Source: Flectonema sp. DT1601 (Eukaryota). From it: a DNA stretch of 64,000 bases. A program made the translations under genes and the position numbers. The stretch lies in the NCBI GenBank assembly GCA_964019425.1, contig OZ025785.1, positions 1 through 64,000 on the forward strand, written 5' to 3'. Shown here one piece after another: positions 9,137 through 38,373 of this stretch (position 1 is its first letter; the number at the start of each line of letters is the position of its first letter). The notes under the pieces are model-generated. The model was not told where the DNA came from. It ran no database searches and saw only the letters and a list, made by a program, of their open reading frames with translations.

Positions 9137-11764
9137 TTAATTAGATTTGAACATCTCACAAGACGTCGTTGGAGTGATTTGGCCAACGTTACCTCCCACC
9201 ACAGAGAATTTACCTTTCTCTCCCAAATAGTATTGCAATTCCAACTTGCCGTCTCTTTTACGCCACACTCGAAGGTTATCAGATGCTGTTACTATAACAT
9301 TGCCATCAGATGAAACAGCGAAAGCGCGTACCTTCTTAGAATGGCCTTCTAATGTGTGTTTTACTACACCCTCAGAAGACACCAAAGTGATCCCTTTTCC
9401 ATCAAAAGCTACAAAGTCATCGTTTCGAAGTCTAATCGGGAGGATGGAATCATAATGCAGAGAACATCCGACGGCTTCACCTGTTCCTGCCTTCCATTGA
9501 AAGACTTTACCATCGGAACTCCCAACAAGAAACTTCCCGCACTCCGAGAATGTGACGGCATCAACACTCTGCTCAGGTATCGTTAACTTATGTTTCAACG
9601 TGTCTGGTGAGAGAAGCAACACGTTCTTCCGAGTGGCACATGCTACGTTCCCTGCTGTGCATGCGATGTCCACAATTTCCCCAACTGAAGAACTGCTCTT
9701 ACTCTTAGGCTGCAAGGTTTCGTTGAGGACTTCCAGTTTGTCTTTAGCTCCAACGAAGATTGACAACGATCCCCCCTCCTGGTAGGCAGCCATACATGAA
9801 TAGGAAATATTATTCCTTGTATCGACTGTGGTCCAATCATCTGTTGAGAATAATTTGATTTCACTTCGTGTCATAGTGACGAGGTACGATGAACAGAGAG
9901 AGACAGAGACGACAGAAGGATCTTCTGAATTACTGCTGGCCCGCAGTCGACGGAGTTGAGCACCAGTTCGAAATTTCCAAATTATGACAAGGCCACCTTC
10001 ACAGCCGCTTGCAAGCAGTTCTGAATAAATTGAAACGTGAGTGACATTCTGCTTGTGCCCTTGGTGGTGTACTGGTAAATAATCATCTTCACGTGTGTTC
10101 CACAATCGAACAGTGCGATCATTGTCGCTGTATCCCGAAGTGGTAATATATTCACCATTACTTGAGTATCTTATTGACATTACTTTACATCCATGTCCAT
10201 GAAGTTTTTTGACGGGCTGCTTCGTTTGCAACCTAATTATTTCAACCTCATTGTCACCTCCCGACGCTACGTAATTCCCACAAGTCGAAAGTGCCAGCCC
10301 ACCGGCTTTCCCTAAAAAGTTCGTCCGCGGTTTGTACTCTTTATCCCAAATGTGAATGGTGAACACACTCGCATTTTCGCTCACCGAAGCAAAACTGATT
10401 TCATTGTTACTAACTCCCATCGGAAGAACTGCAATTTGCTGCGGAATACCAGAATCAATAACAGAATCAGTTATGATGAGTTCCTCATACGAATCCTCTC
10501 TTCGCCTCCATATCACGATTTCTTTACCCTGTGCACAAACTAAGTCACCCGATGAAGTGTATTTTATACTCTTTGCCGTTCCTCCCCTTTTTCTTGGGAT
10601 TCTCTCATGATTTCCCCAAAATAGTTTTTGTTGATCATCCTTGACATCCCACACCATGACAGACGGCTTGCCTCCGTACTTTAGAGCAACTGCCAAGTGC
10701 GCATCATCAGGTGAGAAGACTAGGTCGTTAAGTAAGATATCCCCCTCTTCATGTTTAAGACAATTATACTTCCCTTCTTGGAATGGACTCCAGATAACCA
10801 CTCTCGCAGAATGATTATTAGTACCTGCATGAGAGCAAGTAGCAAGTAGAATGTTTTTATCATCTTTCGCACTGTTACAAGCAATTCCACTTATAAACAA
10901 CGGATGGTACTCACTCAGATTTATCTTCTTAACAACTTTCCCAGTAGCTGATGAGTACAATCCGACATGATTATTGAAAGCGGCGACGATGTATTCGCTG
11001 GATGACGTGAATATCGATTTCACTTTTGCATCAGTCACACTAATCGGAGGTACCCTCATATCAAACGTCGGATTATGAATTTCTGAATAGTCAAAATCGC
11101 AACGCATCATAAGGCACCTCTTGAAGTCACAATTGATGAGAAACGATCCTTCAAAATTCACTTCAACTAAACAACCACCACAAAAACTCACATCCTCCAG
11201 GTGCAGACCGGACAAATCTTCACCAAATAACGTGCAACCTGAAGAGACTAACAACGACAATGCGTTGCTGGCGATGGTACGTTCCTTCTCAACTTCCTTC
11301 TCAACTTTGGATGTCTTAACCAGAGGAAGTAATTTCTTACTCAACTCGTCGTGGTTTCCAATACTTTGTTGAATGAGTTTGTGCTGTTCTAAGATTCCTG
11401 GCTGGGTTTTCGAAAAGCGTAATTTCGACAGCATCTCCCTCAACTCATCTTCACCACATTTGGCAATGTGACTGGCAATTAGATATTCAGCCAACGTTTT
11501 GTGATGAAATCTTACAACACCCATCTCGTAGTACACGGGCAGAAATATCACCAGTCTCTCGAACTCGGCTATCTCTTTGTCGTCTTTGAAATAGTTTGAC
11601 GCCTTTCCTCCCCAGTGCCCCTGTTGCAGCATACGACACGCCAGCATCTCTGCCATGCGTTTCACATCCGCAGATTTTATTAGTTTTTCTTTCTTTTCAT
11701 CTTCCAACTGTTTCTTAATAAATCCATCGATAAACGCTTTGTAAACCGTGGATTTACTTGTCAC
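9137..11764 (-). CDS. Last exon of an NLR-like STAND protein: NACHT-associated helical/winged-helix region, pentapeptide repeats, WD40 propellers
   Basis: RFHHKTLAEYL motif; DLSGLHLEDVSFCGGCLVEVNFEGSFL pentapeptide-like run; WD40 motifs GHGCKV..DRTVRLWN, GHKQNV..IIWK, GHSKKV..LRVW. Acceptor AAACAG|GTG at 11765/11764. Confidence 0.85.
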   Translation of the reverse strand: MTSKSTVYKAFIDGFIKKQLEDEKKEKLIKSADVKRMAEMLACRMLQQGHWGGKASNYFKDDKEIAEFERLVIFLPVYYEMGVVRFHHKTLAEYLIASHIAKCGEDELREMLSKLRFSKTQPGILEQHKLIQQSIGNHDELSKKLLPLVKTSKVEKEVEKERTIASNALSLLVSSGCTLFGEDLSGLHLEDVSFCGGCLVEVNFEGSFLINCDFKRCLMMRCDFDYSEIHNPTFDMRVPPISVTDAKVKSIFTSSSEYIVAAFNNHVGLYSSATGKVVKKINLSEYHPLFISGIACNSAKDDKNILLATCSHAGTNNHSARVVIWSPFQEGKYNCLKHEEGDILLNDLVFSPDDAHLAVALKYGGKPSVMVWDVKDDQQKLFWGNHERIPRKRGGTAKSIKYTSSGDLVCAQGKEIVIWRRREDSYEELIITDSVIDSGIPQQIAVLPMGVSNNEISFASVSENASVFTIHIWDKEYKPRTNFLGKAGGLALSTCGNYVASGGDNEVEIIRLQTKQPVKKLHGHGCKVMSIRYSSNGEYITTSGYSDNDRTVRLWNTREDDYLPVHHQGHKQNVTHVSIYSELLASGCEGGLVIIWKFRTGAQLRRLRASSNSEDPSVVSVSLCSSYLVTMTRSEIKLFSTDDWTTVDTRNNISYSCMAAYQEGGSLSIFVGAKDKLEVLNETLQPKSKSSSSVGEIVDIACTAGNVACATRKNVLLLSPDTLKHKLTIPEQSVDAVTFSECGKFLVGSSDGKVFQWKAGTGEAVGCSLHYDSILPIRLRNDDFVAFDGKGITLVSSEGVVKHTLEGHSKKVRAFAVSSDGNVIVTASDNLRVWRKRDGKLELQYYLGEKGKFSVVGGNVGQITPTTSCEMFKSN

Positions 11765-11841
11765 CTGTTTGTTGATTTTGACTTTAGCTGTAACCTCCTT
11801 GCATTGATCAAAAGAAACCACCAGTATAGAATTACACATAC

Positions 11842-12567
11842 CCCTTCGTGATGAGCCTTGATCGCCATATAGAGGAGCTGTGGGCTGCTCAGCTCATCCC
11901 AAACTCCTCGTTGCTTCAGGTTCTCAACATTTTTCTGATCCACATCTTCGTTGTGCGATATCATTTTTTCTCCAAACTCGTCCTTCTGTTCGGCACTAAA
12001 AGGACGCAGATAGTAAGAATTAGCATTCCTAAGGAGATCTTTCGGAGTGAGTTCTCGTCGGATGAAATTTTCAGTTCTGCTCGTGAGGATAACCCACGAT
12101 TTTGACAACAGCAACGGGTTGAGTTTCAGTAAGTCGGTACCGGAGTCACCGACAACGTTTGCAGTTCCTTCATCAAAGGAATCAAGAACTATAACAACAG
12201 TGTAGGTGAATAGTTGTTTGATATCACAATCAGGTGGAAGCATATGCTTCACGATGTACTTGTCGATAGCATGCGGCTCGAATGCATTTCCGACACTTCC
12301 CATCGACACAAATATTGGGAAGTATTTCTCACTCAATTCTCTAATTAGTTTGACCCCCGCAGAAGTCTTCCCCCCTCCAGCCTCTGACTGCAGTACGAGT
12401 GGGGGTCGGTCGTCACTCTCAAGAAGGTCTTTAATCAATTCAGTTAAGCTGATGTCTTCAATTCTACATAAAGTTGGATCGACGTAACAACATTCGAATT
12501 TTTTAAAAACGAATTCGGCAAGAATAAACCACGCTTGACGCATGTGCTCCAACTGCTCCGATCTAGT
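11842..12567 (-). CDS. NACHT NTPase exon of the NLR-like protein
   Basis: Walker A QSEAGGGKTS (~12390-12361), Walker B VVIVLDSFDE, sensor ILTSR, LRPFS, SPQLL. Donor GGG|GTATGT at 11842/11841 joins in phase 0 to the WD40 exon. The 5' boundary (CCACAG|ACT) is inferred. Confidence 0.8.
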
Positions 12568-12654
12568 CTGTGGTGGTTTACTTTCTTGTCTACCAACTAA
12601 AAAAACCAAAAATAAGGGACTGCAATAATAAACCGAGAAATTTGATGGAAGGTT

Positions 12655-13001
12655 CGGTAAACAATACACTCCTACAAAACATAGAGAACGTTCTAGTGTT
12701 TGATGCTCTTCGAGGAATATTTGTTGCAATTTTCGCAGAAAGCGGGTTTGCTTCATATAAAGATGGTCTGCGATAATAGAGTGAAGCCCATCCACATTCT
12801 CCTCCGTAAACCTTCTCCAGATGATTGATGTAAGAAAAAGTGCTTGAATTGAAGTTACGCATCCTTTGCTAATTCTTCATCACCAGAAACTCATCCAGTT
12901 TAAAAATAATGGCAACTGTCGATTCCCTGTCCTCTGTTTTGAGGAGCCATCAGAGGTTCATGGCGGTAAACAATACACTCCTACAAAACATGGAGAACGT
13001 T
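12655..13001. repeat. 38-bp direct repeat enclosing a ~270-bp insert that carries an inverted LRR-gene 5' fragment
   Basis: cggtaaacaatacactcctacaaaacat(a/g)gagaacgtt at 12655-12692 and 12964-13001. 12844-12965 is the LRR upstream region plus the codons for MATVDSLSSVLRSHQRFMA on the + strand. Confidence 0.85.
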
Positions 13002-13058
13002 TGTATGTATTCCCATAGGCGCAATGTTTCTTGTTTAACATTATTCACAAGCATGTTA

Positions 13059-15023
13059 TTATAAAGAAAAAGTTAAATTACACACCTTAACGAAATTAGT
13101 AATCCGCTCAATGCTTTGCAAAATGATGATGTCATTGGTGCATCCGAAAATTCGCAACGTGCTGGGATTGTACACCCACAAGACTCGGAAGGTGGCATCA
13201 GGCCCGAACAATGACTCTTGCTCACTTTTTCCATAAACGGATAGCGGAGCGATATTCGGAGCAAAACCGAAGACCGCTAACAAACAAGAACGTTCGCTTC
13301 CCATAAAACAGTTCGTGGCATCCACTTTCCGTGAAGTTGAAAAGAAATGATTAAACGACTTTATTTCACCTACTTCGAAATTATTTGCAGAAAATCGGTT
13401 GTCTCCCCTCCACAGTAAGTGGTGCTCTGAAGGAAATCTCTGCAATGCCTTCTGTAAATGATAAATAAGTGGTCTGAGATAGTCGACGTATTTTTTATTT
13501 TCATCATCTGTCTCGTTCAGTGCGAGGCCGTACATTGATTCCTTAATCTTAGAAGCGACGTAAAACTCTTGCGAAGTGTAACAAACGGTAGCGATTAACA
13601 TCTCCAAGGCATCTGCTGGATCGCTGCCTATCAGACTAGCCATCCAAGGCGTAATTTCATTATTCTCCAAGTTTTTCCCAAATGTTGTTATCTTTTTTTG
13701 AATTTGCCTAACTACGTTGGCAAACTGATTTCGTTTCCACTTGAGGGGTGACAAGGGTGAACTGATTCCCTCTTCCTCGTTGGTAAACCATTTTATAATT
13801 TCGTTTTTCTTGGGAACGTAGTCGTCACTGAGAAAGTGATACACCCCACAGTTTGCAAATCTTTCTGAACTACACTGACGTGCACCACCCTCTTCGGGAC
13901 TGTCGTATTCTGGCGCTTTTAGGCTTTTTTTTTCATTCCACTCTTTAATAAGTTTCTTTAAGATTCTGATGTTTTTTCCATACGACTTTAACAGTTCCTT
14001 CAACACCTCTACTGACAACCCTCCTTGAGCTCCGTTGACTAAAGGCGTTTCTTTTGATGAGTTCTCCTGTACTTTTGATTGTTCATCCATGTTTTTAATC
14101 AGTAATTGAGTCATGGCATTGTGACCACACCAACAAGATCCATGAAGACTGTTTGATCCTTCGGGAGTTGTTATTTTCAGGTCGTCCTTTACGGTTTCAG
14201 AGCTCTTAAGCCATTTCTCCATCAAGTCATGATTACCACTTCTGGCAACAATGTAAATCATAGGCCACTTAGACTTCCCAAAACATCTGCCGCTGGGGAT
14301 CTCCATTTTCTTAAAATCTTCCCAGGAAACATATTCAATAAGGGAAGGCATCATTCTGTAACAGGATTTTTGTTCATCGCTCTCATCGTTGTTCAGAACT
14401 ATGTCGAGTGCTCGTGCGCATTTGATTTTTTTATCTTCCTTACTCAGTTTGCTTAGAAGTATCTGAAGACATTCGCAATCACTTTTTTCTAAAGAGTAGA
14501 CCACAGTTGAGACGTTAATCTCACCGCCAATTAGATTCAAAACCGTTTCCATCAACTTCGGGAAGTATCTGACTACGATATTTAATAATTCTTTCATAGT
14601 CTCGCTGTTATCCTTAAACTTATCAATCGCCCCATCATGTCTACCATACTTCGCAATGTGACTGGCAATTAGATATTCAGCCAACGTTTTGTGATGAAAT
14701 CTTACAACACCCATCTCGTAGTACACGGGCAGAAATATCACCAGTCTCTCGAACTGCTCGGCTATCTCTTTGTTGTCTTTGAAAAAACTCGACGCCTTTC
14801 CTTCCCAGTGCCCTTGTTGCAGCATACGACACGCCAGCATCTCTGCCATGCGTTTCACATCCGCAATTTTTTCTGGTTCTTCTTTTTCGTCAGACAGCTG
14901 TTTCTTAAGCTGTTTCTTAATAAACCCGTCGATGAACTCTTCGTAATCTGCGGACGTACTTGTCACCTGTTCGTAACAATACTGGCGCTCCACTAGTTGC
15001 ATAGCATCGAGGTGCTCTGTCAT
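13059..15023 (-). CDS. Ankyrin-repeat + R-S-E-class ADP-ribosyltransferase protein with an N-terminal NACHT-associated helical segment; probably the first exon(s) of the NLR-like gene
   Basis: ART motifs LWRG (~13409), FFSTS (~13340), SEQESLF (~13223). Ankyrin-like IVARSGNHDL, SLHGSCWCGHNAMTQLLI, TPLVNGAQGG. N-terminus is nearly identical to the start of the WD40 exon. Candidate donor AAG|GTGTGT at 13086/13085. Confidence 0.85.
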   Translation of the reverse strand: MTEHLDAMQLVERQYCYEQVTSTSADYEEFIDGFIKKQLKKQLSDEKEEPEKIADVKRMAEMLACRMLQQGHWEGKASSFFKDNKEIAEQFERLVIFLPVYYEMGVVRFHHKTLAEYLIASHIAKYGRHDGAIDKFKDNSETMKELLNIVVRYFPKLMETVLNLIGGEINVSTVVYSLEKSDCECLQILLSKLSKEDKKIKCARALDIVLNNDESDEQKSCYRMMPSLIEYVSWEDFKKMEIPSGRCFGKSKWPMIYIVARSGNHDLMEKWLKSSETVKDDLKITTPEGSNSLHGSCWCGHNAMTQLLIKNMDEQSKVQENSSKETPLVNGAQGGLSVEVLKELLKSYGKNIRILKKLIKEWNEKKSLKAPEYDSPEEGGARQCSSERFANCGVYHFLSDDYVPKKNEIIKWFTNEEEGISSPLSPLKWKRNQFANVVRQIQKKITTFGKNLENNEITPWMASLIGSDPADALEMLIATVCYTSQEFYVASKIKESMYGLALNETDDENKKYVDYLRPLIYHLQKALQRFPSEHHLLWRGDNRFSANNFEVGEIKSFNHFFSTSRKVDATNCFMGSERSCLLAVFGFAPNIAPLSVYGKSEQESLFGPDATFRVLWVYNPSTLRIFGCTNDIIILQSIERITNFVKVCNLTFSL

Positions 15024-15200
15024 TTTGTTTTCCTGTAGAATTATTGTAATACGAATTAAAAGAACGGCAGTCTAAATAGAGCATCGCAGGGCTAATTCTG
15101 GTCCCTACTGGTTTCGCACACATAACGTTATTTACTCCAAGGGCCGGTTAATTAATATACAACTAATTCTGATAGCCAGCTGGTAATAATAAAATGATGG

Positions 15201-16709
15201 TTACGATGACCTCTCACTTATCGAATGACAGATCCAACTGTAGACGACATCACTGCATTCTCTTAATCCTTTGACACTGTTCTTAGTTAGTTTTGTATTC
15301 TCTAAGAAACAATATCCCATCATAGTCAGCCCCCGAAGACCCGAAACATCGATGGAGGTGAGGGACTCACAGTTACTTATAAAGTAATCGCCAACCCTCG
15401 TAACTTCACCCAAGGAAGACAAATCCACGCTAGTCAGAGACTTTGAATTTTTTAAGAACCCAAGTCCTATTGTATTCAGCTTCCGAAAACCGGATACATC
15501 GATAGAGGTCAGGGACTCACAGTTACTAATAAAGTTATTATCAATGCTTCTAACTTCACTCAAGGAAGACAAATCCACGCTAGTCAGACACTTTGAACCA
15601 TGCAAGAACCCATGCCTTATTTTAGTGAGCTTCTGAAAACCGGAAACATCGATGGAGGTGAGTGACTCACAGTTACTCATAAAGTCATCGCCAACACTCG
15701 TTACCTTACTCAGACAGGATAAATCCACGTGAGTCAGAGACTGCAAGTTGTTCAAGAATTCGCAGGGGATGGCCGTCACATTGTGAAAAGAAGTGAAATC
15801 GATTGACGTCAGCGAGTCACAACTGTCTGACAGGAACTCTTGCTCAAATGCAGTGCAACGGCTGCAGTTGGTGAATGACAACCGACGGATAGAAGACGGA
15901 AGCATCTCAATACAATCACTAGAAAGGGTGCCTTCATCGTCGATATATTCTGAGGCATCGAGGACACACAACATGTCGGGATTTAGTCCGAACAAATTGT
16001 CAATTCGAGTACGAAGATGTGAAGTTCTCAACTCCTCCGCAGTCACAACACGTTCATACCGAGGCCATTTGTATGTTCTTTTCACAGTACCCCAGTTGCT
16101 CGAATCTTCCAGCTCACGGAGGATCTGGGCACCCCATGAGGTGTTGTCAAATTGGGATTTGACTTCTTCCTTCGACGAATGGGAGAGTCTCGGCCAGTCC
16201 AGCAACAGGAAGAGTTCCTTCCTGAGTTGGGCTGGGACACCCTCCTCTGTTTCACCCATGCCCAAGTAACCAATTTGAAGTGTGTTGAAATACTCATCCT
16301 CGTTCAGCATCCAAGGGAAGCAGGTGGACGAGAATACATTCCTCAGGTCATCTTCGACCAACTCCAACTTCCCGTCCCCCTTGAGATCAGCTTTAACAAA
16401 CCCGATATCGGCACACTTCATGTCAGGATGCAAGGAAAGGGTTCCCAGTAATCGCGAGCTTCCTTCCACCAACTTCGCCGACTCCTTCTCCCTCGCCACC
16501 CGGTGTACTTCCTTGTACGTCGTCAATTCAGTCGCAGCCTCAGCATCCGTCATTCCAACCATGATCTCCTCCGACGATCTGAGAACTTCTGAAAAGCTGT
16601 CCATCAGCGCCCCCGACTCTTCCTTCCGACTCACCACTTCCACGAGCAGCTTCGCCATGAACCTCTGATGGCTCCTCAAAACAGAGGACAGGGAATCGAC
16701 AGTTGCCAT
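15201..16709 (-). CDS. LRR protein (25-aa alternating repeats, BspA/LRR_5-like), 502 aa, diverged paralog
   Basis: Shared ~270-aa N-terminal region, repeats LTSIDVSGFxKLTxI.xxFL / LTSVDLSSLxEV.x.xxFI, C-terminal cap TKLT..VKGL.ECSDVV. Confidence 0.85.
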   Translation of the reverse strand: MATVDSLSSVLRSHQRFMAKLLVEVVSRKEESGALMDSFSEVLRSSEEIMVGMTDAEAATELTTYKEVHRVAREKESAKLVEGSSRLLGTLSLHPDMKCADIGFVKADLKGDGKLELVEDDLRNVFSSTCFPWMLNEDEYFNTLQIGYLGMGETEEGVPAQLRKELFLLLDWPRLSHSSKEEVKSQFDNTSWGAQILRELEDSSNWGTVKRTYKWPRYERVVTAEELRTSHLRTRIDNLFGLNPDMLCVLDASEYIDDEGTLSSDCIEMLPSSIRRLSFTNCSRCTAFEQEFLSDSCDSLTSIDFTSFHNVTAIPCEFLNNLQSLTHVDLSCLSKVTSVGDDFMSNCESLTSIDVSGFQKLTKIRHGFLHGSKCLTSVDLSSLSEVRSIDNNFISNCESLTSIDVSGFRKLNTIGLGFLKNSKSLTSVDLSSLGEVTRVGDYFISNCESLTSIDVSGLRGLTMMGYCFLENTKLTKNSVKGLRECSDVVYSWICHSISERSS

Positions 16710-17242
16710 TTTCTTAAACTGGATGAGTTTCTGGTGATGAAGAATTAATTCAAAGGATACGTAACTTCAATTCAAGAATGAAGGAAAACTGCTTGTGAGT
16801 CAACTTCCCACTTGTCTGGAAACCACCTGAAGAATATCAGCGTGTGATGAATTAAAACTCCGACTTCGATACCATTGTACGCAAGAGACACCAGGCAGCT
16901 GCAGCACTCGAATTGAATGCTCAACTCAATTTTAATATTTCTTTCTTTGTGTCCCAACTCATATGAAGGCAGCTGTACTGCCCTTGGCTGTTGAAGTAAA
17001 CAAACAATTACACAACTCACAAAAGGGATGAATAACATATCAACGGGAAGCTGTGTCCTGACTTCACTAAATGAATACATTTTGTTTTCTACTGTTGTAG
17101 TGATTCTCAAAGGGAAACCCATGCTGAGTGCAGGATTTCAGGTCTTTTAGAGGATGAAGCAGCGAGTCCTTTAAAATCATTCCAACGACATCACTGCAAT
17201 CTTCCAATCCCTTGAAATCTTTCTCAGTCAGTTTTGTATGAC

Positions 17243-18383
17243 TACTAAGATGATGAAAGTGGATGAACCAAACTAAAGTGTTGGATGTGATATTACAACA
17301 ATCGGACAACAAATTAAATAAGCAGATGGATCCTTTGATTCGACTTAGTCAGTTTCGATAAAATTATTTTCCCCCAAAATTCACACCAAAATTACAGCAA
17401 TCTTGATAAAACCCAAAAATTAAAATCGTACACCGCGAACAAAGTGATTTGATACAGAAATAGACAAAAAGTAATATATTCTATTCTGTTGGTTTTATTT
17501 ATTTTATTTGTTCATGTTTTTTGTAATAAAGAGAATAATCGAACCTGTCCATTAAACCTTGCCCCATAGATACGGCTGCGAGTCTTGAAGAATATCATGA
17601 GGAGCTTTGTTCATCTTCATAACGGCTCGTTGCAGAAATTTCAATTCGTGAGACCCTGAGAAGGGATCTTTATCCTTTATGTACTGTCCTTGGCTGTTGA
17701 AGTAAATAAACAATTACACAACTTACTAGAGGATGAATCATAGATCAATTACATAAAGAATATAATTGAGCCTTTGATGTTATTCAGTAATTCCTGAGGG
17801 GTGAGGTATAATAAGGGTTAAAGAATCACTTGCATAAAGCTAGGCGCTGTTAGTCAGAAATCAGAAAACTCTTTACAAACACACACAAAATGTTGTTACT
17901 TTTTCAGTAGCATCCCTAATTAGAAAAACCACATACATATTCGGTTAAATCTGTTACTATGCCAGCCAGACAACAGCCAGGATATTAATTTCTCACACAG
18001 TCGCATCCGCAGCGTGGTACCGCAACAAGGAGCACACACTGCACGTTAAATGTCTACCCCGAATAAGAAAATAAAAGAGAAAAACTGTCGCGGGATTGTC
18101 ATGTACGGTGACTAACAGCCGCGCAGTTGCCTGGAGAGGTAAGCAAAGTTAAATATCGGTCCAGGCTAAGGTTGCAGTGAAACTACTGTGCCGGTGTAAG
18201 GATCGGCTTTCTGAGCGTTTGTGGGGACCCACTCGACATCGGTTGGACACATTGATGTCATCCAACACCTTCCTCATCACTTTGATTGTTCGATGGAATT
18301 GATTCTTAATTTCCTCCTCCTCGTCAATGATATGCGAGCTTTCAACAGATTGACAGATGAACAGCAGCTGACAAAACTATTGA
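17243..18383. repeat. Mosaic intergenic block duplicated in pieces at ~20923-22074
   Basis: Direct matches: ~17243-17349 with ~20923-21029, ~17620-17830 with ~21041-21250, ~18000-18219 with ~21251-21470, ~18239-18384 with ~21921-22074. Confidence 0.8.
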
Positions 18384-18730
18384 AAATCAAAATGCCAATT
18401 GACAACAATAATAATCACAAGTACCATGACTAATAACAATCAGCTACCTTCTGATTTCCACAGTTAGAGGTTACGGTATATTTTATGGAGTAGAATTTCT
18501 TTCAAATGTTATCAGAAGTTGATGACATACTTTAAGCCAAAATTTTGGGTCAAGTTCGAGTTCTGGTGGACAACTTTTTTTTGTAGGGAGTTGGCGTTTT
18601 CGCAAACTATTTTTGTAGAATAGAAGAGGTGTTCCCATAATAACAAAAAGAATCGTCAAACTCCACACGTACCTCAGAATTTTTGTTTTGATTGTGCGCA
18701 ACTGGTACAAAATCCTAATAAAGGAATAGG

Positions 18731-20638
18731 TTAGTTAGTCTCAGTATTGGGTTGGTAGGTACAAAATAATAAAGCAGTGACTAAATAAAGCAAGATGATA
18801 AGCTTGTTACAACCTAAAACCAACCGGAAGAAGGTGTTGATCTTATATTTAAAAATATATTCAACTTCCCTTTTAACGACATCACTGCACTCCCCCAACC
18901 CCCTGACAACTTTCTTAGTCAGTTTTGTTTCCTTCAGGAAACTTCCTCCTATTTTGCTCACCTTCTTCAAACCGGAAACATCGATGGAGGTGAGGGACTC
19001 ACAGTTATTAATAAAGTAATCGCCAACACTCGTAACTTCAGTCAAAGAAGACAAGTCTACGCAAGTCAGACACTTTGAATTATACAAGAATCCATCTCCT
19101 ATTTTAGTCAGCTTCTTCAAACCGGAAACATCGATGGAGGTGAGGGACTCACAGCCTCTAATAAAGTCATCGCCAACACTCGTTACTTCACTCAAGGAAG
19201 ACAAGTCTACGCTAGTCAGAGACTTTGAATTATGCAAGAATCCACTTCCTATTGTAGTCAGTTTCTGAAAACCTGAAACATCGATGGAGGTGAGGGACTC
19301 ACAGTTATAAATAAAGTCATCGCCAACCCTAGTAACTTCACTCAAGGAAGACAAGTCTACGCTAGTCAGAGACTTTGAATTATGCAAGAATCCGCTTCCT
19401 ATTTTAGTCAGTTTCTGAAAACCGGAAACATCGATGGAGGTGAGGGACTCACAGTTATAAATAAAGTAATTGCCAACACTCGTTGCTTCACTCAAGGAAG
19501 ACAAATTTACGCTAGTCAGAGACTTTGAATTATGCAAGAATCCATCTCCTATTTTAGTCAGTTTCTGAAAACCGGAAACATCGATGGAGATGAGGGACTC
19601 ACAGTTGCTAACAAAGTCGTCTCCAACACTTGTTACTTTACTCAGACAGGATAAATTAACGTGAGTCAGAGACTTCAAGTTGTTCAAGAACTTGCTGGGG
19701 ATGATCGTCACATTGTGCAAAGAAGTGAAATCGATTGACGTCAGCGAGTCACAACTGTCTGACAGGAACTCTTGCTCAAATGCAGTGCAACGGCTGCAGT
19801 TGGTGATTGACAACCGACGGATGGAAGGTGGCAGCATGTCACAATCACCAGAAAGGGTGCCTTCATCGTCGATATATTCTGAGGCATCGAAGACATACAA
19901 CATGTCGGGATTTTGTGTGAACAAAGCGTCAATTCGAGTATGAAGATGTGAAGTTTTCAACTCCTCCGCAGTCACAACACGTTCAGACCGAGGCAATTTG
20001 TATGTTCTTTTCACAGTACCCCAGTTGTTCGAATCTTCCAGCTCACGGAGGATCTCGGCACCCCATGAGGTGTTGTCAAATTGGGATTTCACTTCTTCCT
20101 TCGACGAATGGGAGAGTCTCGGCCAGTCCAGCAACAGGAAGAGTTCCTTCCTGAGTTGGGCTGGGACACCCTCCTCTGTTTCACCCATGCCCAAGTAACC
20201 AATTTGAAGTGTGTTGAAATACTCATCCTCGTTCAGCAGCCGAGGGAAGCAGGTGGACGAGAATACATTCCTCAGGTCATCTTCGACCAACTCCAACTTC
20301 CCGTCCCCCTTGAGATCAGCTTTAACAAACCCGATATCGGCACACTTCATGTCAGGATGCAAGGAAAGGGTTCCCAGTAATCGCGAGCTTCCTTCCACCA
20401 ACTTCGCCGACTCCTTCTCCCTCGCCACCCGGTGTACTTCCTTGTACGTCGTCAATTCAGTCGCAGCCTCAGCATCCGTCATTCCAACCATGATCTCCTC
20501 CGACGATCTGAGAACGTCAGAAAAGCTGTCCATCAGCGCCCCCGACTCTTCCTTCCGACTCACTACTTCCACGAGCAGCTTCGCCATGAACCTCTGATGG
20601 CTCCTCAAAACAGAGGACAGGGAATCGACAGTTGCCAT
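18731..20638 (-). CDS. LRR protein, 635 aa, diverged paralog with more repeats and a hydrophobic C-terminal stretch
   Basis: Same N-terminal region; 150-bp DNA periodicity; cap followed by LIILLYLVTALLFC. Confidence 0.85.
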   Translation of the reverse strand: MATVDSLSSVLRSHQRFMAKLLVEVVSRKEESGALMDSFSDVLRSSEEIMVGMTDAEAATELTTYKEVHRVAREKESAKLVEGSSRLLGTLSLHPDMKCADIGFVKADLKGDGKLELVEDDLRNVFSSTCFPRLLNEDEYFNTLQIGYLGMGETEEGVPAQLRKELFLLLDWPRLSHSSKEEVKSQFDNTSWGAEILRELEDSNNWGTVKRTYKLPRSERVVTAEELKTSHLHTRIDALFTQNPDMLYVFDASEYIDDEGTLSGDCDMLPPSIRRLSITNCSRCTAFEQEFLSDSCDSLTSIDFTSLHNVTIIPSKFLNNLKSLTHVNLSCLSKVTSVGDDFVSNCESLISIDVSGFQKLTKIGDGFLHNSKSLTSVNLSSLSEATSVGNYFIYNCESLTSIDVSGFQKLTKIGSGFLHNSKSLTSVDLSSLSEVTRVGDDFIYNCESLTSIDVSGFQKLTTIGSGFLHNSKSLTSVDLSSLSEVTSVGDDFIRGCESLTSIDVSGLKKLTKIGDGFLYNSKCLTCVDLSSLTEVTSVGDYFINNCESLTSIDVSGLKKVSKIGGSFLKETKLTKKVVRGLGECSDVVKREVEYIFKYKINTFFRLVLGCNKLIILLYLVTALLFCTYQPNTETN

Positions 20639-21700
20639 TTTCTTAAACTGGATGAGTTTCTGGTGATGAAGAATTAATTCAAGATGCGTAACTTCAATTC
20701 AAGAATGAAGGAAACTGCTGTGAGTCAACTTCCCACTTGTCTGGAAACCACCTGAAGAATATCAGCGTGTGATGAATTAAAACTCCGACTTCGATACCAT
20801 TGTACGCAAGAGACACCAGGCTGCTGCAGCACTCGAATTGAATGCTCAACTTGATTCTAATATTTCCTTCTCGATGTCCCGATTCACACAGATGCCCACA
20901 GCACCAAAGAGAACCCGTCTCTTACTAAGATGATGCAAGTGGATGAACCAAACTAAAGTGTTGGATGTGATATTACAACAATCGGACAACAAATTAAATA
21001 AGCAGATGGATCCTTTGATTCGACTTAGTGTAATATATTCTAACGGCTCGTTGCAGAAATTTCAATTCGTGAGACCCTGAGAAGGGATCTTTATCCTTTA
21101 TGTACTGTCCTTGGCTGTTGAAGTAAATAAACAATTACACAACTCACTAGAAGATGAATCATAGATCAATTACATAAAAAATATAATTGAGCCTTTGATC
21201 TTATTCAGTAATTCCTGAGGGGTGAGGTATAATAAGAGTTAAATAATCACGTCGCATCCCCAGCGTGGTACCGCAACAAGGAGCACACACTGCACGTTAA
21301 ATGTCTACCCCGAATAAGAAAATAAAAGAGAAAAACTGTCGCGGGATTGTCATGTACGGTGACTAACAGCCGCGCAGTTGCCCGGAGAGGTAAGCAAAGT
21401 TAAATATCGGTCCAGGCTAAGGTTGCAGTGAAACTACTGTGCCGGTGTAAGGATCGGCTTTCTAAGCGTTCGTTGATCTAAGACATCTGTCTTGTGTACA
21501 AAAGTGTATTCTTGTTATTTTTAGCTATTTCTATTATGTGAGTCTCTCCGTAGACTTCGATGTAAAAACCCGATTCGTGGTTGTTGGATATCTAATTCGG
21601 GAATTCTCTTTATTATTTTTTTTTCAATTAAAAAAAAGTCAAAAATAATTTAAAATAAAACATCACCATCACCAGATCTATCAATATGAAGTACATCACA

Positions 21701-21831
21701 ATTCCTTTCGGATTCAGGCTTGGGATGTTCCCTGTTCACTCGCCGTTACTGGGAGAATCGCTGTTGCTTTCTTTTCCTGTGCTGAGTGATATGCTTAAGT
21801 TCAGCACGTAGATCTTCAACTGCTGAGGTCG
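21701..21831 (-). rRNA. ~130-bp fragment of the 5' end of 28S (LSU) rRNA
   Basis: Reverse complement reads GACCTCAG...GCTGAACTTAAGCATATCACTCAGCACAGGAAAAGAAAGCAAC...CAGTAACGGCGAGTGAA, the conserved LSU 5' end. Confidence 0.88.
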
Positions 21832-22249
21832 GTAAGAAGTGAGTCGCAATCACATTGGCCTCCCGTAACCACATCAAAATATATGAGATCCTCTTATCCT
21901 CTTATAATAATTCTTAATAATCGGTTGGACACATTGATGTCATCCAACACCTTCCTCATCACTTTGATTGTTCGATCTTTTAGTGGAATTGATTCTTAAT
22001 TTCCTCCTTCTCGTCAATGATATGCGAGCTTTCAACAGATTGACAGATGAACAGCAGCTGACAAAACTATTGAACGTCCGAGTGGTAAGTTAAGGAAGTC
22101 ATCAATGTAGCAGCAGGAGTTCCGAATACGGTATTTTCAATTCGAATAATTACTTTCAGTGAGTACAGTGACGGGAGCTAATTATTTACCAACTGGCTGA
22201 AGGTGGTCATCTCATATTTTAGAATAATATTATATTTAACTTCCGAAAT

Positions 22250-22579
22250 TCCTTCTTAACGAAATCACTACATTCATACAATCCCCTGACAACTTTCTTA
22301 GTCAGTTTTGTTTCCTTCAGGAAACTTCTTCCTATTTTACTCACCTTCTTCAAACTGGAAACATCGAGTTGTTCAAGAACTTGCTGGGGATGGCCGTCAC
22401 ATTGTGCAAAGAAGTGAAATTGATTGACGTCAGCGAGTCACAACTGTCTGACAGGAACTCTTGCTCAAAAGCAGTGCAACGGCTGCAGTTGGTGAATGAC
22501 AACCGACGGATGCAAGACGGAAGCATCTCAACACAATCACTAGAAAGGGTGCCTTCATCGTCGATATATTCTGAGGCAT
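22250..22579 (-). pseudogene. LRR gene fragment with an internal deletion joining the first repeats to the terminal repeat/cap
   Basis: 22368-22579 matches ASEYIDDEGTL...KFLNN; 22250-22367 matches the terminal repeat and cap DNA; no 5' end. Confidence 0.8.
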
Positions 22580-24125
22580 GTACTTTTCCTTGGCTTGTTA
22601 AGATTGTCATGGCAATGTTTAGGCTGGCAGAGCATACTGAACAGTAATAACCGAATAGGTCAGCTGTTGCAAAAAAGAGAAAGCGTGGGAGGAATAGAAA
22701 AGAAAGAAAAAAAAAGAAAACAAAGCCCGCGACCTAGAGATGGCGTTAAGAACCTCTCGTGTCAAAGAAAAACAACCAAAGAATGTTATAAAAGGGGTTT
22801 GGGGGAAGTACGCGACCTAAACAATCAAATGTTGTGAAGAACGAGACCTTGTCCTGAAGAATTTCAGGAAGGAGAATACTCGTTTAGCTTAACAGGGAAT
22901 ACTTTAATAGTTTTGAAATTTTATTATTTCTTGATTTTTCAATTTCGGGAAATTTTTTGTGTTGTGATCCGACATTACATTAACATTGAGGAATTGGAGG
23001 TTTGACCTTTTTTTTTTCTTTTTTTTCTGTATTTTTGTTTTTTCAAAATGAAAAATACAGAAATACAAATAAAATAAAAAAGAACAAGCCTTAACTAAGA
23101 TTTATATTTTGACGTCAACCACAGTGAGTGCCAACTCTGGAATCTGTAGTGGTTTTTAAGAAAGCAGATTAATTTAGTTGATGACACTCTCATAGTTTCT
23201 GAATGGTAATTTTATTCTCTTCTCAACCCAACTCTATTCTAAATGCTAAAAAAAATCAGCGATCGACATTCTGTCAACATTCTCTCTTCATCAGCACAAC
23301 AAGTATTTATTATTATGTTTCCTTTCATCAGTTTCTTAACAACAAAACCAAAGAATTCACTTATTCGGTCCATCAAGACGAATATAAAAAAATAACAAAA
23401 TGTTGAAACTTCTAACTGGGATTGCTCTGTTAGTCTTCTGGTTCGGGTTCTTCATCGCTGGAGTTGATTACACGAATGACGGTAACGGCCCGACCACGCC
23501 TCCGTCTGTTAGGAGCCTAAAGATGGTTCTAAGAACCTCTCGCGTTATGCTGCCACGATCCTCAATTGGGTTGGTAGGTACAAAATAATAAAGCAGTGAC
23601 TAAATAAAGCAAGATGATAAGCTTGTTACAACCTAAAACCAACTGGAAGAAGGTGTTGATCTTATATTTAAAAATATATTCAACTTCCCTTTTAACGACA
23701 TCACTGCACTCCTCCAATCCCCCGACGACTTTCTTAGTCAGTTTTGTTCCTTCAGGAAACTTCTTCCTATTTCGGTCACCATCTTCAAACTGGAAACATC
23801 GATGGAGGTGAGGGACTCACAGCTATTAATAAAGTGATCGCCAACACTCGTAACTTCACTCAAGGAAGACAAATCCACGCTAGTCAGAGACCTTGAATTA
23901 TGCAAGAACCCATGCCTTACTTTAGTGAGCTTCTGAAAACCGGAAACATCGATGGAGGTGAGGGACTCACAGTTACTAATAAAGTCATCACCAATGCTCG
24001 TAACTTCACTCAGAGAAGACATATCCACGCTAGTCAGACTCTTTGAATAACCTAAGAATCCACTTCCTATTTTAGTCACCTTCTTCAAACCGGAAACATC
24101 GATGGAGGTGAGGGACTCACAGTCA

Positions 24126-24832
24126 AAAAAAAAAAAAATAACCAGTGTTTAGGGGTTTGAATCCCATGGATCCCGTCGCTCAGGCGGTCCGGTGGAGAAC
24201 CGGGTAGGGCACTGTGAACGAGTTGCGGTCCAGGTGGCGTCGGAAGGCCACCGCACCAACAGATTTGTTTCTTCGCACAACAGTAGCTTGGAGACCGTAA
24301 GAGACCCAAGGTGGTTCACAACCGCTCGAACAACCGCGTGTGAAGGAACAAGATTGAAAAGAAAAGAATATAAGAAAAGAAATGCCACACACAAAAAACG
24401 ACGTAGTAAAGCAGAGAGGTAGGGGGAGGGATGGCCTCTTTCTCCACACATTGCATGGGAGCTCCCCGAGTAACTCGCGGGGCTGATACTGTTAATACAT
24501 TTCAGGCGACCTGAACTTATAATCCCCCCATGCGTGAAAAGACTAAACGGGGGAAGTTTGAAGGAAATGGGGGTAAAGGGAAATCATGCCACTAAGGAAA
24601 AAATAAAAACCCGGTGGCCCCTGTGAGCTCTGGGTGCCTGAGTATCCCGGGCCGGATCACCTGACCTTCTGCTATGTTGTCCTTTTTTTTTTTTTTAAAG
24701 GTTAGGCTACGGAGGAAAATAAAACGGGGGTAAAAGAATACACAGCAACAACAATACGTCAGCACTCTAGTTACACACAAGGTGCATCCAGGTAACACCA
24801 CGAGGAGGCGCGCTATCCGAGTTTCGTTACCC
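24126..24832 (-). mobile_element. ~700-bp non-autonomous retroposon (SINE/RIME-like) with a 5' HDV-like ribozyme and a T-rich 3' tail
   Basis: 20-bp target-site duplication aggtgagggactcacagtca at 24106-24125 and 24833-24852; no convincing ORF; sense-strand 3' end ...CACTGGTTA-Tn. Confidence 0.88.
24760..24832 (-). ncRNA. HDV-like self-cleaving ribozyme
   Basis: Minus strand: P1 GGGTAAC/GTTACCT (G1-U wobble), P2 TAGCGC/GTGCTG, P3 GCC/GGT, L3 TCCTCGT, J1/4 GG (P1.1), P4 TGCAC/GTGTA, J4/2 ACTAGA containing the candidate catalytic C. Confidence 0.85.
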
Positions 24833-26573
24833 AGGTGAGGGACTCACAGTCATGAATAAAGTAATCTCCCACACTTGTTACTTCACTCAAGGAAGACAAA
24901 TCTACGCTAGTCAGAGACTTTGAATTATACAAGAATCCATCTCCTATTTTAGTCAGCTTCTTCAAACCGGAAACATCGATGGAGGTTAGGGACTCGCAGT
25001 TATAAATAAAGCAATTGCCAACACTCGTTACTTACTCAGGGAAGATAAATTAACGTGAGTCAGAGACTTCAGGTTGTTCAAGAACTTGCTAGGGATGGCC
25101 GTCACATTGTACAAAGAAGTGAAATCGATTGACGTCAGCGAGTCACAACCGTCTGACAGGAACACTTGCTCAAAAGCAGTGCAACGGCTGCAGTTGGTGA
25201 ATGACAACCGACGGATAGAAGACGGAAGCATCTCAATACAATCACTAGAAAGGGTGCCTTCATCGTCGATATATTCTGAGGCATCGAGGACACACAACAT
25301 GTCGGGATTTAGTCCGAACAAATTGTCAATTCGAGTACGAAGATGTGAAGTTCTCAACTCCTCCGCAGTCACAACACGTTCATACCGAGGCCATTTGTAT
25401 GTTCTTTTCACAGTACCCCAGTTGCTCGAATCTTCCAGCTCACGGAGGATCTCGGCACCCCATGAGGTGTTGTCAAATTGGGATTTGACTTCTTCCTTCG
25501 ACGAATGGGAGAGTCTCGGCCAGTCCAGCAACAGGAAGAGTTCCTTCCTGAGTTGGGCTGGGACACCCTCCTCTGTTTCACCCATGCCCAAGTAACCAAT
25601 TTGAAGTGTGTTGAAATACTCATCCTCGTTCAGCATCCAAGGGAAGCAGGTGGACGAGAATACATTCCTCAGGTCATCTTCGACCAACTCCAACTTCCCG
25701 TCCCCCTTGAGATCAGCTTTAACAAACCCGATATCGGCACACTTCATGTCAGGATGCAAGGAAAGGGTTCCCAGTAATCGCGAGCTTCCTTCCACCAACT
25801 TCGCCGACTCCTTCTCCCTCGCCACCCGGTGTACTTCCTTGTACGTCGTCAATTCAGTCGCAGCCTCAGCATCCGTCATTCCAACCATGATCTTCTCCGA
25901 CGATCTGAGAACTTCTGAAAAGCTGTCCATCAGCGCCCGACTCCTCCTTCCGACTCACCACTTCCACGAGCAGCTTCGCCATGAACCTCTGATGGCTCCT
26001 CAAAACAGAGGACAGGGAATCGACAGTTGCCATTATTTTTAACTGGATGAGTTTCTGGTGATGAAGAATTAATTCAAAGGATACGTAACTTCAATTCAAG
26101 AATGAAGGAAACTGCTTGTGAGTCAACTTCCCACTTGTCTGGAAACCACTTGAAAATTATCAGCGTGTGATGAATTACTTCGATACCATTGTACATAAGA
26201 GACACCAAGGCAGCTGCAGCACTCGAATTGAATGCTCAACTCGATTCTAATATTTCTTTCTTTGTGTCCCAACTCATATGAAGGCAGCTGTACTGTCCTT
26301 GGCTGTTGAAGTAAACAAACAATTACACAACTCACAAAAGGGATGAATAACATATCAACGGGAAGCTGTGTCCTGACTTCACTAAATGAATACATTTTGT
26401 TTTCTACTGTTGTAGTGATTCTCAAAGGGAAAACCATGCTGAGTGCAGGATTTCAGGTCTTTTAGAGGATGAAGCAGCGAGTCCTTTAAAATCATTCCAA
26501 CGACATCACTGCAATCTTCCAATCCCTTGAAATCTTTCTCAGTCAGTTTTGTATGAAATAAATAATTTTAGAG

Positions 26574-28208
26574 TTACTTTCTCATTGCGCTTATCTCCAT
26601 TCGCGTAACATCACTACAGGAAGACAAATCTACGCTAGTCAGAGACTTTGAATTACGCAAGAATCCATATCCTATTTTAGTCAGCTTCCGAAAACCGGAA
26701 ACATCGATGGAGGTGAGGGACTCACAGTTACTAATAAAGTTATTGCTAACACTCGTAACTTCTCTCAAGGAAGACAAATCCACGCTAGTCAGACGCTTTG
26801 AATTAAACAAGAAAAAGCTTCCTATTTTAGTCAACTTTTGAAAACCGGAAACATCGATGGAGGTGAGGGACTCACAGTTACTCATAAAGTCATCGCCAAT
26901 GCTCGTGACTTCACTCAAGGAAGACAAATCCACGCTAGTCAGACACTTTGAACCATGTAAGAACCCATGCCTTATTTGAGTCAGCTTCTGAAGACCTGAA
27001 ACATCGATGGAGGTTAGTGACTCACAGTTATAAATAAAGTAATTGCCAACACTCGTAACTTCACTCAAGGAAGACAAGTCTACGCTAGTCAGACACTTTG
27101 AATTATACAAGAATCCATCTCCTATTTTAGTGAGCTTCTGAAAACCGGAAACATCGATGGAGATGAGGGACTCACAGTTTCTAATAAAGTGATCGCCAAC
27201 ACTCGTTACTTCCCTCAGACCGGATAAATTAACGTGAGTCAGAGACTTCAAGTTGTTCAAGAACTTGCTGGGGATGGCCGTCACATTGTACAAAGAAGTG
27301 AAATCGATTGACGTCAGCGAAAAACAACTGTCTGACAGGAACTCTTGCTCAAAAGCAGTGCAACGGCCGCAGTTGGTGAATGACAACCGACGGATAGAAG
27401 ACGGAAGCATCTCAACACAATCACTAAAAAGGGTGCCTTCATCGTCGATATATTCTGAGGCATCGAAGACACACAACATGTCGGGATTTTGTGTGAACAA
27501 AATGTCAATTCGAGTACGAAGATGTGAAGTCTTCAACTCCTCCGCAGTCACAACACGTTCAGGCCTCTTGTATGTTCTTTTCACAGTACCCCAGTTGTTC
27601 GAATCTTCCAGCTCACGGAGGATCTCGGCACCCCATGAGGTGTTGTCAAATTGGGATTTCACTTCTTCCTTCGACGAATGGGAGAGTCTCGGCCAGTCCA
27701 GCAACAGGAAGAGTTCCTTCCTGAGTTGGGCTGGGACACCCTCCTCTGTTTCACCCATGCCCAAGTAACCAATTTGAAGTGTGTTGAAATACTCATCCTC
27801 GTTCAGCATCCGAGGGAAGCAGGTGGACGAGAATACATTCCTCAGGTCATCTTCGACCAACTCCAACTTCCCGTCCCCCTTGAGATCAGCTTTAACAAAC
27901 CCGATATCGGCACACTTCATGTCAGGATGCAAGGAAAGGGTTCCCAGTAATCGCGAGCTTCCTTCCACCAACTTCGCCGACTCCTTCTCCCTCGCCACCC
28001 GGTGTACTTCCTTGTACGTCGTCAATTCAGTCGCAGCCTCAGCATCCGTCATTCCATCCATGATCTCCTCCGACGATCTGAGAACGTCAGAAAAGCTGTC
28101 CATCAGCGCCCCCGACTCCTCCTTCCGACTCACCACTTCCACGAGCAGCTTCGCCATGAACCTCTGATGGCTCCTCAAAACAGAGGACAGGGAATCGACA
28201 GTTGTCAT
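26574..28208 (-). CDS. LRR protein, 544 aa
   Basis: Intact ORF of the same family; ends MEISAMRK like the tandem copies. Confidence 0.85.
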   Translation of the reverse strand: MTTVDSLSSVLRSHQRFMAKLLVEVVSRKEESGALMDSFSDVLRSSEEIMDGMTDAEAATELTTYKEVHRVAREKESAKLVEGSSRLLGTLSLHPDMKCADIGFVKADLKGDGKLELVEDDLRNVFSSTCFPRMLNEDEYFNTLQIGYLGMGETEEGVPAQLRKELFLLLDWPRLSHSSKEEVKSQFDNTSWGAEILRELEDSNNWGTVKRTYKRPERVVTAEELKTSHLRTRIDILFTQNPDMLCVFDASEYIDDEGTLFSDCVEMLPSSIRRLSFTNCGRCTAFEQEFLSDSCFSLTSIDFTSLYNVTAIPSKFLNNLKSLTHVNLSGLREVTSVGDHFIRNCESLISIDVSGFQKLTKIGDGFLYNSKCLTSVDLSSLSEVTSVGNYFIYNCESLTSIDVSGLQKLTQIRHGFLHGSKCLTSVDLSSLSEVTSIGDDFMSNCESLTSIDVSGFQKLTKIGSFFLFNSKRLTSVDLSSLREVTSVSNNFISNCESLTSIDVSGFRKLTKIGYGFLRNSKSLTSVDLSSCSDVTRMEISAMRK

Positions 28209-29711
28209 TATTTTAAACTGGATGAGTTTCTGGTGATGAAGAATTAATTCAAGATGCGTAACTTCAATTCAAGAATGAAGGAAAACTGCTTGTGAGTCAA
28301 CTTCCCACTTGTCTGGAAACCACCTGAAGAATATCAGCGTGTGATGAATTAAAACTCCGACTTCGATACCATTGTACACAAGAGACACCAGGCAGCTGCA
28401 GTACTCGAATTGAATGCTCAACTCGATTCTAATATTTCTTTCTTTGTGTCCCAACTCATATGAAGGCAGCTGTACTGTCCTTGGCTGTTGAAGTAAACAA
28501 ACAATTACACAACTCACAAAAGGGATGAATAACATATCAACGGGAAGCTGTGTCCTGACTTCACTAAATTAATACATTTTGTTTTCTCCTGTTGTAGTGA
28601 TTCTTTGATTGTCTCACAGGCTGCTTCCTGAAACGAAAAACTACAAATCCCAATTCCCTCTCTTCATTTCTTTTAGTTCTTTCTTCTTTTTTTTTTTTAT
28701 TTGTTTTTCTTTTTTTGAACCAAAACGAGGGTTTATATCTTCGTTGTGGCATAACAATCCACTACTGGTATTCCCCAAATGCAAATATTTTGAAGAAATA
28801 TATAAAAATATTTATTATAGTGAGCGCCGCATAGAATATTACTTTTGTTGTTTGTACATTATACGTTTTTATATTTTGTTTTTGGTTTCTCTCTTGCTCT
28901 TCCCGCACACTCTCTCTCCTCTCTCTCTCTCTCTTTTCTTTAGAAAGCAGTAATAAAAATAGACAAAGAAAGAAATTCTGTATTGGCTTTATTTGAGTTT
29001 ACGTTTTTTTTTAATTTTTGGTAACCGTATATCAGTGCATACTCATAATGACTGCAGCATCCCAACAGGAACTACAAACATTGTTAAGGAGAAAGAACAA
29101 AACAAAACACAGCAGGTGTGGGAGAATAGTCGTAGAGTGGGAGAACTTCTCTCACAAGAAGGGTTTGTCACCTAAATCCTCACAACTACCACCTGTAAAA
29201 TTAAATCAGAACATTTTTCTTTTTTATAAAATGATTGTTAATCTGTACTTTACTTTATAGGCTTGTTTCCGTTTGCGTATAAAACAACGACAACGATTAC
29301 AGTATCTTATTCTCTTGTTGAATGGGATAGGAATAACACAAAAATATCTTTTTCTTCTTTTCAAAGGTGCGCATGCGTGTTGTTTAAAAAAAAGAATTGG
29401 CTTTATCTTCAACTATACAGAAAATAATGATAACACTGATTTGTTTGTTTGTGCACGAAACCGTGAACCGACTTAAACTGATAAAGCTAAAGGAGGTTTA
29501 CGTGTGCTGCCAACATTCTTTTTCGTTCTTACAATACTTGTTAAATGCAAAAAAAAAAAAAAAAGAGAAAACCATGCTGAGTGCAGGATTTCAGGTCTTT
29601 TAGAGGATGAAGCAGCGAGTCCTTTAAAATCATTCCAACGACATCACTGCAATCTTTCAATCCCTTGAAATCTTTCTCAGTCAGTTTGGTATGAAACAAA
29701 TAATTTTAGAG

Positions 29712-38081: not shown

Positions 38082-38373
38082 TATTTTAAACTGGATGAGT
38101 TTCTGGTGATGAAGAATTAATTCAAGATGCGTAACTTCAATTCAAGAATGAAGGAAAACTGCTTGTGAGTCAACTTCCCACTTGTCTGGAAACCACCTGA
38201 AGAATATCAGCGTGTGATGAATTAAAACTCCGACTTCGATACCATTGTACACAAGAGACACCAGGCAGCTGCAGTACTCGAATTGAATGCTCAACTCGAT
38301 TCTAATATTTCTTTCTTTGTGTCCCAACTCATATGAAGGCAGCTGTACTGTCCTTGGCTGTTGAAGTAAACAA

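Follow-up and report, generated by a model that had tools for sequence, protein, structure and literature searches.

A putative NLR-like STAND protein with a predicted arginine ADP-ribosyltransferase effector in Flectonema sp. DT1601

We describe here a gene on the minus strand of a 64,000-nt stretch of DNA from Flectonema sp. DT1601 (positions 1 to 64,000 of contig OZ025785.1, assembly GCA_964019425.1), which we refer to as the window. Three long open reading frames (ORFs) are predicted to be spliced into a single protein, in which an ankyrin-like region (Ank), an ADP-ribosyltransferase (ART) domain, a NACHT NTPase domain, pentapeptide repeats, and a WD40 part follow one another. We read this protein as an NLR-like STAND receptor with arginine mono-ADP-ribosylation as its predicted output, and we assign a probability of about 0.62 to this reading. 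The order of effector, NOD, and repeats within one polypeptide is seen in relatives from the diplonemid Flectonema neradi, and it arises at the locus itself through predicted splicing.

Gene structure and single-ORF relatives

The three ORFs on the minus strand (13059-15071, 11761-12876, and 9137-11893) are linked in our model by two introns, resulting in a protein of 1763 residues encoded by exons of 646, 242, and 875 codons without an internal stop. The features of the model are as follows:

15033..15078, minus strand: candidate spliced-leader acceptor, a pyrimidine tract and then AG at 15034-15033, 9 nt 5' of the ATG
13086..15023, minus strand: exon 1, 646 codons, with leader, winged-helix copy, ankyrin-like region, linker, and ART
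14635..14974, minus strand: winged-helix copy, residues 20-124, an in-frame copy of 11445-11772 with 86% nucleotide identity
13968..14597, minus strand: ankyrin-like region, with Pfam Ank_2 at residues 258-352
13179..13595, minus strand: ART domain of the R-S-E class, with R539 at 13409-13407, S562 at 13340-13338, and E601-Q-E603 at 13223-13215
12568..13085, minus strand: intron A, 518 nt, phase 0, AAG/GTGTGT...CCACAG/ACT
11842..12567, minus strand: exon 2, 242 codons, NACHT NTPase
12387-12361, minus strand: Walker A SEAGGGKTS, within exon 2
within 12195-12169, minus strand: Walker B LDSFDE (extended, VIVLDSFDE), exon 2
within 12090-12076, minus strand: sensor-1-like LTSR, exon 2
11765..11841, minus strand: intron B, 77 nt, phase 0, GGG/GTATGT...AAACAG/GTG, with 11798 or 11795 as alternative acceptors
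9137..11764, minus strand: exon 3, 875 codons and stop, with winged helix, helical part, pentapeptide repeats, and WD40
11509-11483, minus strand: winged-helix motif FHHKTLAEY, residues 974-982, exon 3
about 11203-11060, minus strand: pentapeptide repeats, exon 3, followed by a WD40 propeller part of about 640 residues

Both introns and the 1763-residue product (646+242+875) had been proposed in an earlier reading made from the letters of the window (the sequence-only reading), and our codon counts agree with it. Words of the form GGT[AG]TGT occur only twice on the minus strand of 9137-15023, each time as one of the proposed donors. When 137 YAG sites are ranked by A+C content, both acceptors fall within the top four. 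In a study covering six diplonemids, G/GTATG donors are reported from three Diplonemidae, together with introns that have A-rich 3' ends (PMC12621601). The donor and acceptor words at both introns are therefore in agreement with Diplonemidae splice signals (PMC12621601), the donor of intron B being an exact fit and that of intron A, G/GTGTG, lying one base off GTATG. The splice words and the relatives described below point to a diplonemid or close euglenozoan as the probable source organism.

At junction A, a GT-AG intron would join ART to NACHT between stop-free exons. Of the 351 pairs examined there, 70 keep the frame without a stop, and the proposed pair is the best of them when scored by similarity to relatives; the length of the model across the junction differs by 0-1 residue from three F. 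neradi paralogues. The intron between NACHT and WD40 is well supported by its consensus donor and by the one-ORF relatives, and it accounts for the apparent frameshift as had been claimed, with the exact acceptor less certain. The acceptors 11798 and 11795, used with the same donor, score equally well. As junction B ranks only eighth of 20 by homology, its exact ends rest on the splice signals, and homology does not settle its 3' end. The consensus donor and the one-ORF relatives also make it unnecessary to invoke the genetic code or a true frameshift for the break at 11841-11765. Intron A showed no unusual RNA structure (z -1.2). Splicing of the three ORFs into one protein at the locus is, in our judgement, very probable. 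The candidate AG at 15034-15033 is preceded by 20 pyrimidines in 30 nt and may be used as a spliced-leader site.

A search with the NACHT exon found one protein among 1509 longer candidates, the F. neradi transcript prediction P0001 with 1703 residues, and a search with residues 190-1000 of P0001 returned four of 7989 candidates, namely P0001, P0006, P0007, and P0008. P0001, P0006 (1920 residues), and P0007 (1788 residues) are transcript-derived, unannotated F. neradi proteins (EukProt EP01060) with 30-46% identity to the window protein, each carrying Ank, ART, NACHT, pentapeptide, and WD40 in a single ORF and matching the three window ORFs in order (tblastn, colinear). The search for ART-NACHT-WD40 relatives, which had been proposed as a check, thus produced three paralogues that bear out the earlier single-protein reading. 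The distant P0008 (ENA, 2028 residues) has matches to ART, Ank_2, NACHT, and, weakly, pentapeptide, without a WD40 match. The 14 relative sequences comprise three F. neradi paralogue clusters (5, 1, and 7 sequences including isoforms) and P0008, which amounts to about four independent genes. Two of the seven sequences in one cluster (P0010 and P0012, 917-919 residues) end soon after NACHT without winged helix or WD40, and are either sensor-less forms or assembly ends.

With the ANK-ART part as query, a weak test, none of 3153 longer proteins matched. DNA-pattern scans, which reach close relatives only, found nothing in 252 and 215 metagenome stretches, 59 viral contigs, and 28 prokaryote genomes, and phages gave no tblastn match within the same reach. 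In one F. neradi cluster, the five full-length sequences show 15.9 variable columns per 100 in ART, 16.3 in the first WD40 part, and 0-3.8 in NACHT, the winged-helix domain, and pentapeptide, with variation also concentrated in the N-terminus and ankyrin. In the other cluster, variation is found mainly in the linker. This pattern is a hint of diversification, bearing in mind that Trinity isoforms can be chimeric.

The predicted ART effector and the NACHT switch

Pfam identified Ank_2 (E 2.7e-6), NACHT (PF05729; E 3.2e-7, 30.8 bits, above the cut-off of 26.7), and WD40 (E 6.5e-26) in the three window ORFs, together with ART (E 0.001) and Pentapeptide_4 (E 5e-4), both below their cut-offs. The ART domain of P0001 lies above the Pfam cut-off, and NACHT reaches 37-39 bits in the three F. 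neradi proteins.

As the sequence-only reading had stated, the ART motifs are intact, with R539 (WRGD), S562 (FSTS), and E601-Q-E603 in the window protein. The arginine, the serine, and both glutamates are invariant in all 10 rows of the ART alignment, which takes in nine of the 14 relative sequences, and E-x-E is present in all 14. Between the window protein and the F. neradi paralogues, the ART region is 37-49% identical and the preceding linker 14-18%, as would be expected under selection for catalysis. The R-S-EXE motif indicates arginine specificity; enzymes with QXE act on other residues, on DNA, or on water (PMC3102197). Because R-S-ExE is kept, arginine mono-ADP-ribosylation of a protein is predicted, and the ART domain is likely to be catalytically active and arginine-specific. 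In the ESM Atlas, the ART part is nearest to a eukaryotic ART cluster (score 0.97), in which the commonest named phylum is Rotifera. The top matches listed by Foldseek for a low-confidence ART model were all R-S-E ARTs (best E 1.1e-4, TM about 0.3), and phmmer of the ART part against the PDB gave nothing significant.

The consensus motifs of such NTPases are GxxxxGK[ST] for Walker A and hhhhD[GS]hDE for Walker B. The earlier description of both Walker motifs as intact stands for Walker B, LDSFDE, but not entirely for Walker A, SEAGGGKTS, which begins with serine and not glycine. A proline motif of the helical domain, SPQLL, is located at residues 874-878. The FHHKTLAEY motif, which resembles the NLRC4 H443 motif, is shared by 12 of 14 relative sequences, and the two exceptions are the short forms that end after NACHT. 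With the profile match, Walker A/B, the proline motif, and the winged-helix histidine all present, the window protein can be classified by its sequence as a NACHT-type STAND NTPase. Judged by their length, the roughly 640 residues of WD40 likely form two propellers; the repeats are degenerate, and 9137-11764 contains no high-identity tandem repeats. The part of P0007 from ART to pentapeptide is nearest in the Atlas to bacterial NACHT-pentapeptide clusters (0.87), which we take as a lead only.

Rearranged N-terminus, intron A insertion, and surroundings

The N-terminal part, described earlier as ankyrin, does contain Ank_2 at residues 258-352, but residues 20-124 are a copy of the winged-helix segment that follows NACHT. 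The copy and its source share 77 identical codons, with nine silent and 14 replacement differences, indels that keep the frame, and a longest identical run of 103 nt. P0001, P0006, and P0007 are without such a copy. As homology to the F. neradi proteins resumes only near window residue 143, corresponding to about their residue 60, the winged-helix copy has taken the place of the 50-60 residues with which the family begins. No second NACHT exon is present upstream in the window, so the copy is not the end part of a complete gene located there. Domain self-duplication recurs in the ART-NACHT family: P0006 carries a degenerate NACHT duplicate at about residues 655-800, before the intact NACHT.

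When the sequence preceding the copy was compared with the end of exon 2, the match ranked 3 of 5713 over 57 nt, and the ranks over 27, 40, and 70 nt were 6, 62, and 28. For two of these four lengths, the terminal sequence of exon 2 was closer to it than that of intron B. These weak signals are hints that the copy was made from spliced RNA. The idea that the copy includes the acceptor region of intron B found no support past about 9 nt.

Further features outside the coding exons are:

12655..13001, strand not assigned: insertion of 309 nt in intron A, flanked by the two copies of a 38-nt direct repeat at 12655-12692 and 12964-13001
15201..55001, minus strand: LRR gene array, a co-oriented tandem directly upstream of the gene

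The insertion, like the winged-helix copy, went unmentioned in the sequence-only reading. Without the insertion, intron A would measure 209 nt. The insertion contains at 12843-12965 an inverted copy of 123-125 nt with 94-96% identity to the 5' end of the LRR genes; a further 150 nt of it, at 12693-12842, are open in two frames and match nothing elsewhere in the window. The array holds about 11 co-oriented copies, including eight units of 3291 nt with 98.6-99.7% identity, and the first 280 residues of the LRR copies have no Pfam match. The near-identical units reflect either recent expansion or a long-read assembly artefact. The LRR cluster that had been noted next to the gene, and there called expanding, does adjoin it in the same orientation. 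The tie seen between the gene and the array is a physical one, through shared rearranged DNA.

A non-LTR retroelement ORF of 1105 codons with reverse transcriptase (RT) and RNase H domains lies just upstream of an LRR copy (38820-42137, minus strand), and the array also contains a scrap of 80 nt from the 5' end of a eukaryotic LSU rRNA (21729-21808, minus strand). On the other side of the gene, a tRNA-Leu(AAG) directly follows a poly(A) run (7207-7288), and an LRR scrap (7311-7375) is followed by a scrap of eukaryotic-type SSU rRNA and then by a scrap of LRR-upstream DNA (7610-7682). Scraps of rRNA and of LRR genes and a retroelement with RT and RNase H in the vicinity make RNA-templated insertion a plausible source of the 309 nt inserted in intron A. 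A direct duplication of 558 nt (6633-7188 and 8357-8913) is 97% identical, each copy ending in a plus-strand A run. Positions 1-7000, possibly a decayed mobile element, have a GC content of 55-65% with strong G and A skew, and the 12 ORFs tested there had no Pfam match. An ORF of 1539 codons with CLU, eIF3_p135, and TPR domains is located at 58438-63057 (minus strand).

Proposed function, alternatives, and comparison with known systems

In bacteria and in fungi, proteins built from an effector, NACHT, and repeats serve in defence or cell death (10.1101/2022.07.19.500537; PMC12881547). If the mechanism is like that of bNACHT, Avs, and HNWD proteins, the resting protein would be closed on ADP (10.1101/2022.07.19.500537; PMC13276650; PMC12881547). 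A cue bound by the WD40/pentapeptide part would open the protein and let it oligomerise, and the oligomer would release or cluster ART, leading to modification of an essential protein of the host or of an invader. The ankyrins may aim or restrain ART. The NACHT switch probably controls ART, and the architecture inclines us, with somewhat less assurance, towards a role in defence or cell death.

Several points weigh against the immune receptor with an ART output. STAND-WD40 proteins have non-immune roles too. The first glycine of Walker A is serine in the window protein, alanine in all 13 F. neradi sequences, and glycine in P0008. The ART domain stays below its Pfam cut-off (18.8 vs. 22.3 bits), its model is weak (pLDDT 57, TM about 0.3), and the VIA-align comparison with an ART toxin domain is middling (Z at most 6.8, rmsd 2.8, 82 residues). 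Splicing at the locus is deduced from signals and relatives; junction B ranks eighth, tied with the seventh, of 20 in-frame pairs by homology (54 examined), the model being four residues shorter there than three paralogues, and intron A carries the insertion as well as a pyrimidine-rich AG at 12597 (20 of 30 pyrimidines) at which a spliced leader could be added. The close relatives are all from a single species, and the window copy, with its rearranged N-terminus, may differ from the family. Among defence families, PADLOC gave only weak Ankyrin/HEAT matches (E 0.001-0.008) and NCBIfam no match in five proteins.

The alternative that survives best, though unlikely, is that the spliced protein serves as a signalling switch and not as a death or defence receptor, reversibly ADP-ribosylating arginine in a specific partner on an internal cue. 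Architecture does not give function, the ARTC enzymes of vertebrates have regulatory as well as killing roles (PMC3102197), and the ankyrin region beside ART could direct it to one substrate. The several F. neradi paralogues with patchy variation in ART and the first WD40 part speak against such a switch, with the caveat that the variation comes from one cluster in which Trinity chimeras are possible, as does the location of the gene in a fast-rearranging LRR array.

It is improbable that the locus yields two messengers, an ANK-ART mRNA ending after 13059 and a NACHT-WD40 mRNA receiving its own spliced leader within intron A, either alone or in competition with cis-splicing. The AG at 12597, the imperfect donor A, and the 309-nt insertion would all suit this arrangement, and spliced-leader addition is general in Diplonema (PMC10161547). 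Yet the relatives are single ORFs, junction A is the best of 70 with its spacing kept, and only one other word like donor A occurs in 5.9 kb. Least probable is a recently scrambled, decaying, non-functional copy of a real family with its true N-terminus lost: the N-terminus is replaced by a self-copy and the surroundings are full of captured rRNA pieces, LRR fragments, and a broken LRR copy, but 1763 codons run without stop or frameshift, the catalytic and switch motifs are kept, and the frame is preserved through the indels that separate one winged-helix copy from the other.

We therefore retain the NLR-like receptor with an arginine ART output as our preferred reading. A wider proposal, that of a euglenozoan family of NLR-like immune receptors with this output in which the ART substrate loops and the sensor diversify among paralogues, and in which RNA-templated copying remodels the genes and has here put a second winged-helix lock at the N-terminus to tune the switch, is tentative and rather doubtful as a whole. 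The outputs known for STAND proteins are TIR/SIR2 NADases, nucleases, proteases, pore formers, and adaptors. Arginine ART is absent from the bacterial (10.1101/2022.07.19.500537) and fungal (PMC9815663) effector lists examined, and the main texts of these two sources contain no mention of "ADP-ribosyl", whereas their supplements could list such fusions. Likewise, neither NLR nor NACHT appears in the main text of the D. papillatum genome paper (PMC10161547), the supplements of which could differ. Among the matches listed in searches of the openly accessible literature on ART, NACHT, NLR, and protists, none described an ART-NACHT-WD40 protein. ART domains have been named among general apoptosis effectors (PMC8195603), and an ART-like domain with LRRs is already known (PMC7955679); with these and TeTIR (see below) on record, the logic is not new, but the effector type is. 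In 2010, arginine-specific ARTs were considered to be apparently lacking in unicellular eukaryotes (PMC3102197). If the wider proposal is true, the euglenozoan family would add a new effector class to the STAND proteins. The family offers a cloneable handle on whether receptor-triggered defence or suicide exists in single-celled eukaryotes. In the sea, diplonemids belong to the most abundant protists (PMC10161547), and uncalled introns leave such genes hidden as broken ORFs.

Among known systems, the fungal HNWD proteins (HET-E, HET-D, and HET-R of Podospora) are intracellular and share the effector-NACHT-WD40 order, the known cases having a cell-death output (PMC12881547). The window protein differs from them in its effector, an R-S-ExE ART behind ankyrins instead of HET or TIR (neither of which matched in Pfam at E 0.1), in the pentapeptides preceding WD40, and in its degenerate WD40 repeats without high-identity tandem repeats. 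The bacterial bNACHT/Avs proteins resemble it in their tripartite layout and conserved winged-helix histidine, and pentapeptide and propeller sensors occur among them. Unlike these, the window gene is eukaryotic and intron-bearing, and the effector list of the bNACHT preprint includes no ART (10.1101/2022.07.19.500537). NACHT-WD40 proteins of the TeTIR/TEP1 type also place an NAD+-using enzyme directly before NACHT, with WD40 behind (10.64898/2026.09.21.753143), but their enzymes are TIR-fold NADases, whereas an ART-fold transferase is predicted here. The arginine-specific ARTC enzymes (vertebrate ART1/ART2, Tre1, Vis, ExoS, SpvB, and XopAI) share the R-S-ExE motif and, judging from the weak model, may resemble the window ART in the fold of the catalytic core. 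Their identity to it is only 11-21%, and they are ecto-enzymes or delivered toxins, while the window ART would reside within a large cytosolic STAND protein. Finally, a strict NLR has the NOD-LRR order, in contrast to the pentapeptide and WD40 C-terminus of the window protein. Being neither a strict NLR nor an HNWD protein and matching no curated Avs/bNACHT profile, the predicted protein is an NLR-like STAND protein by architecture.

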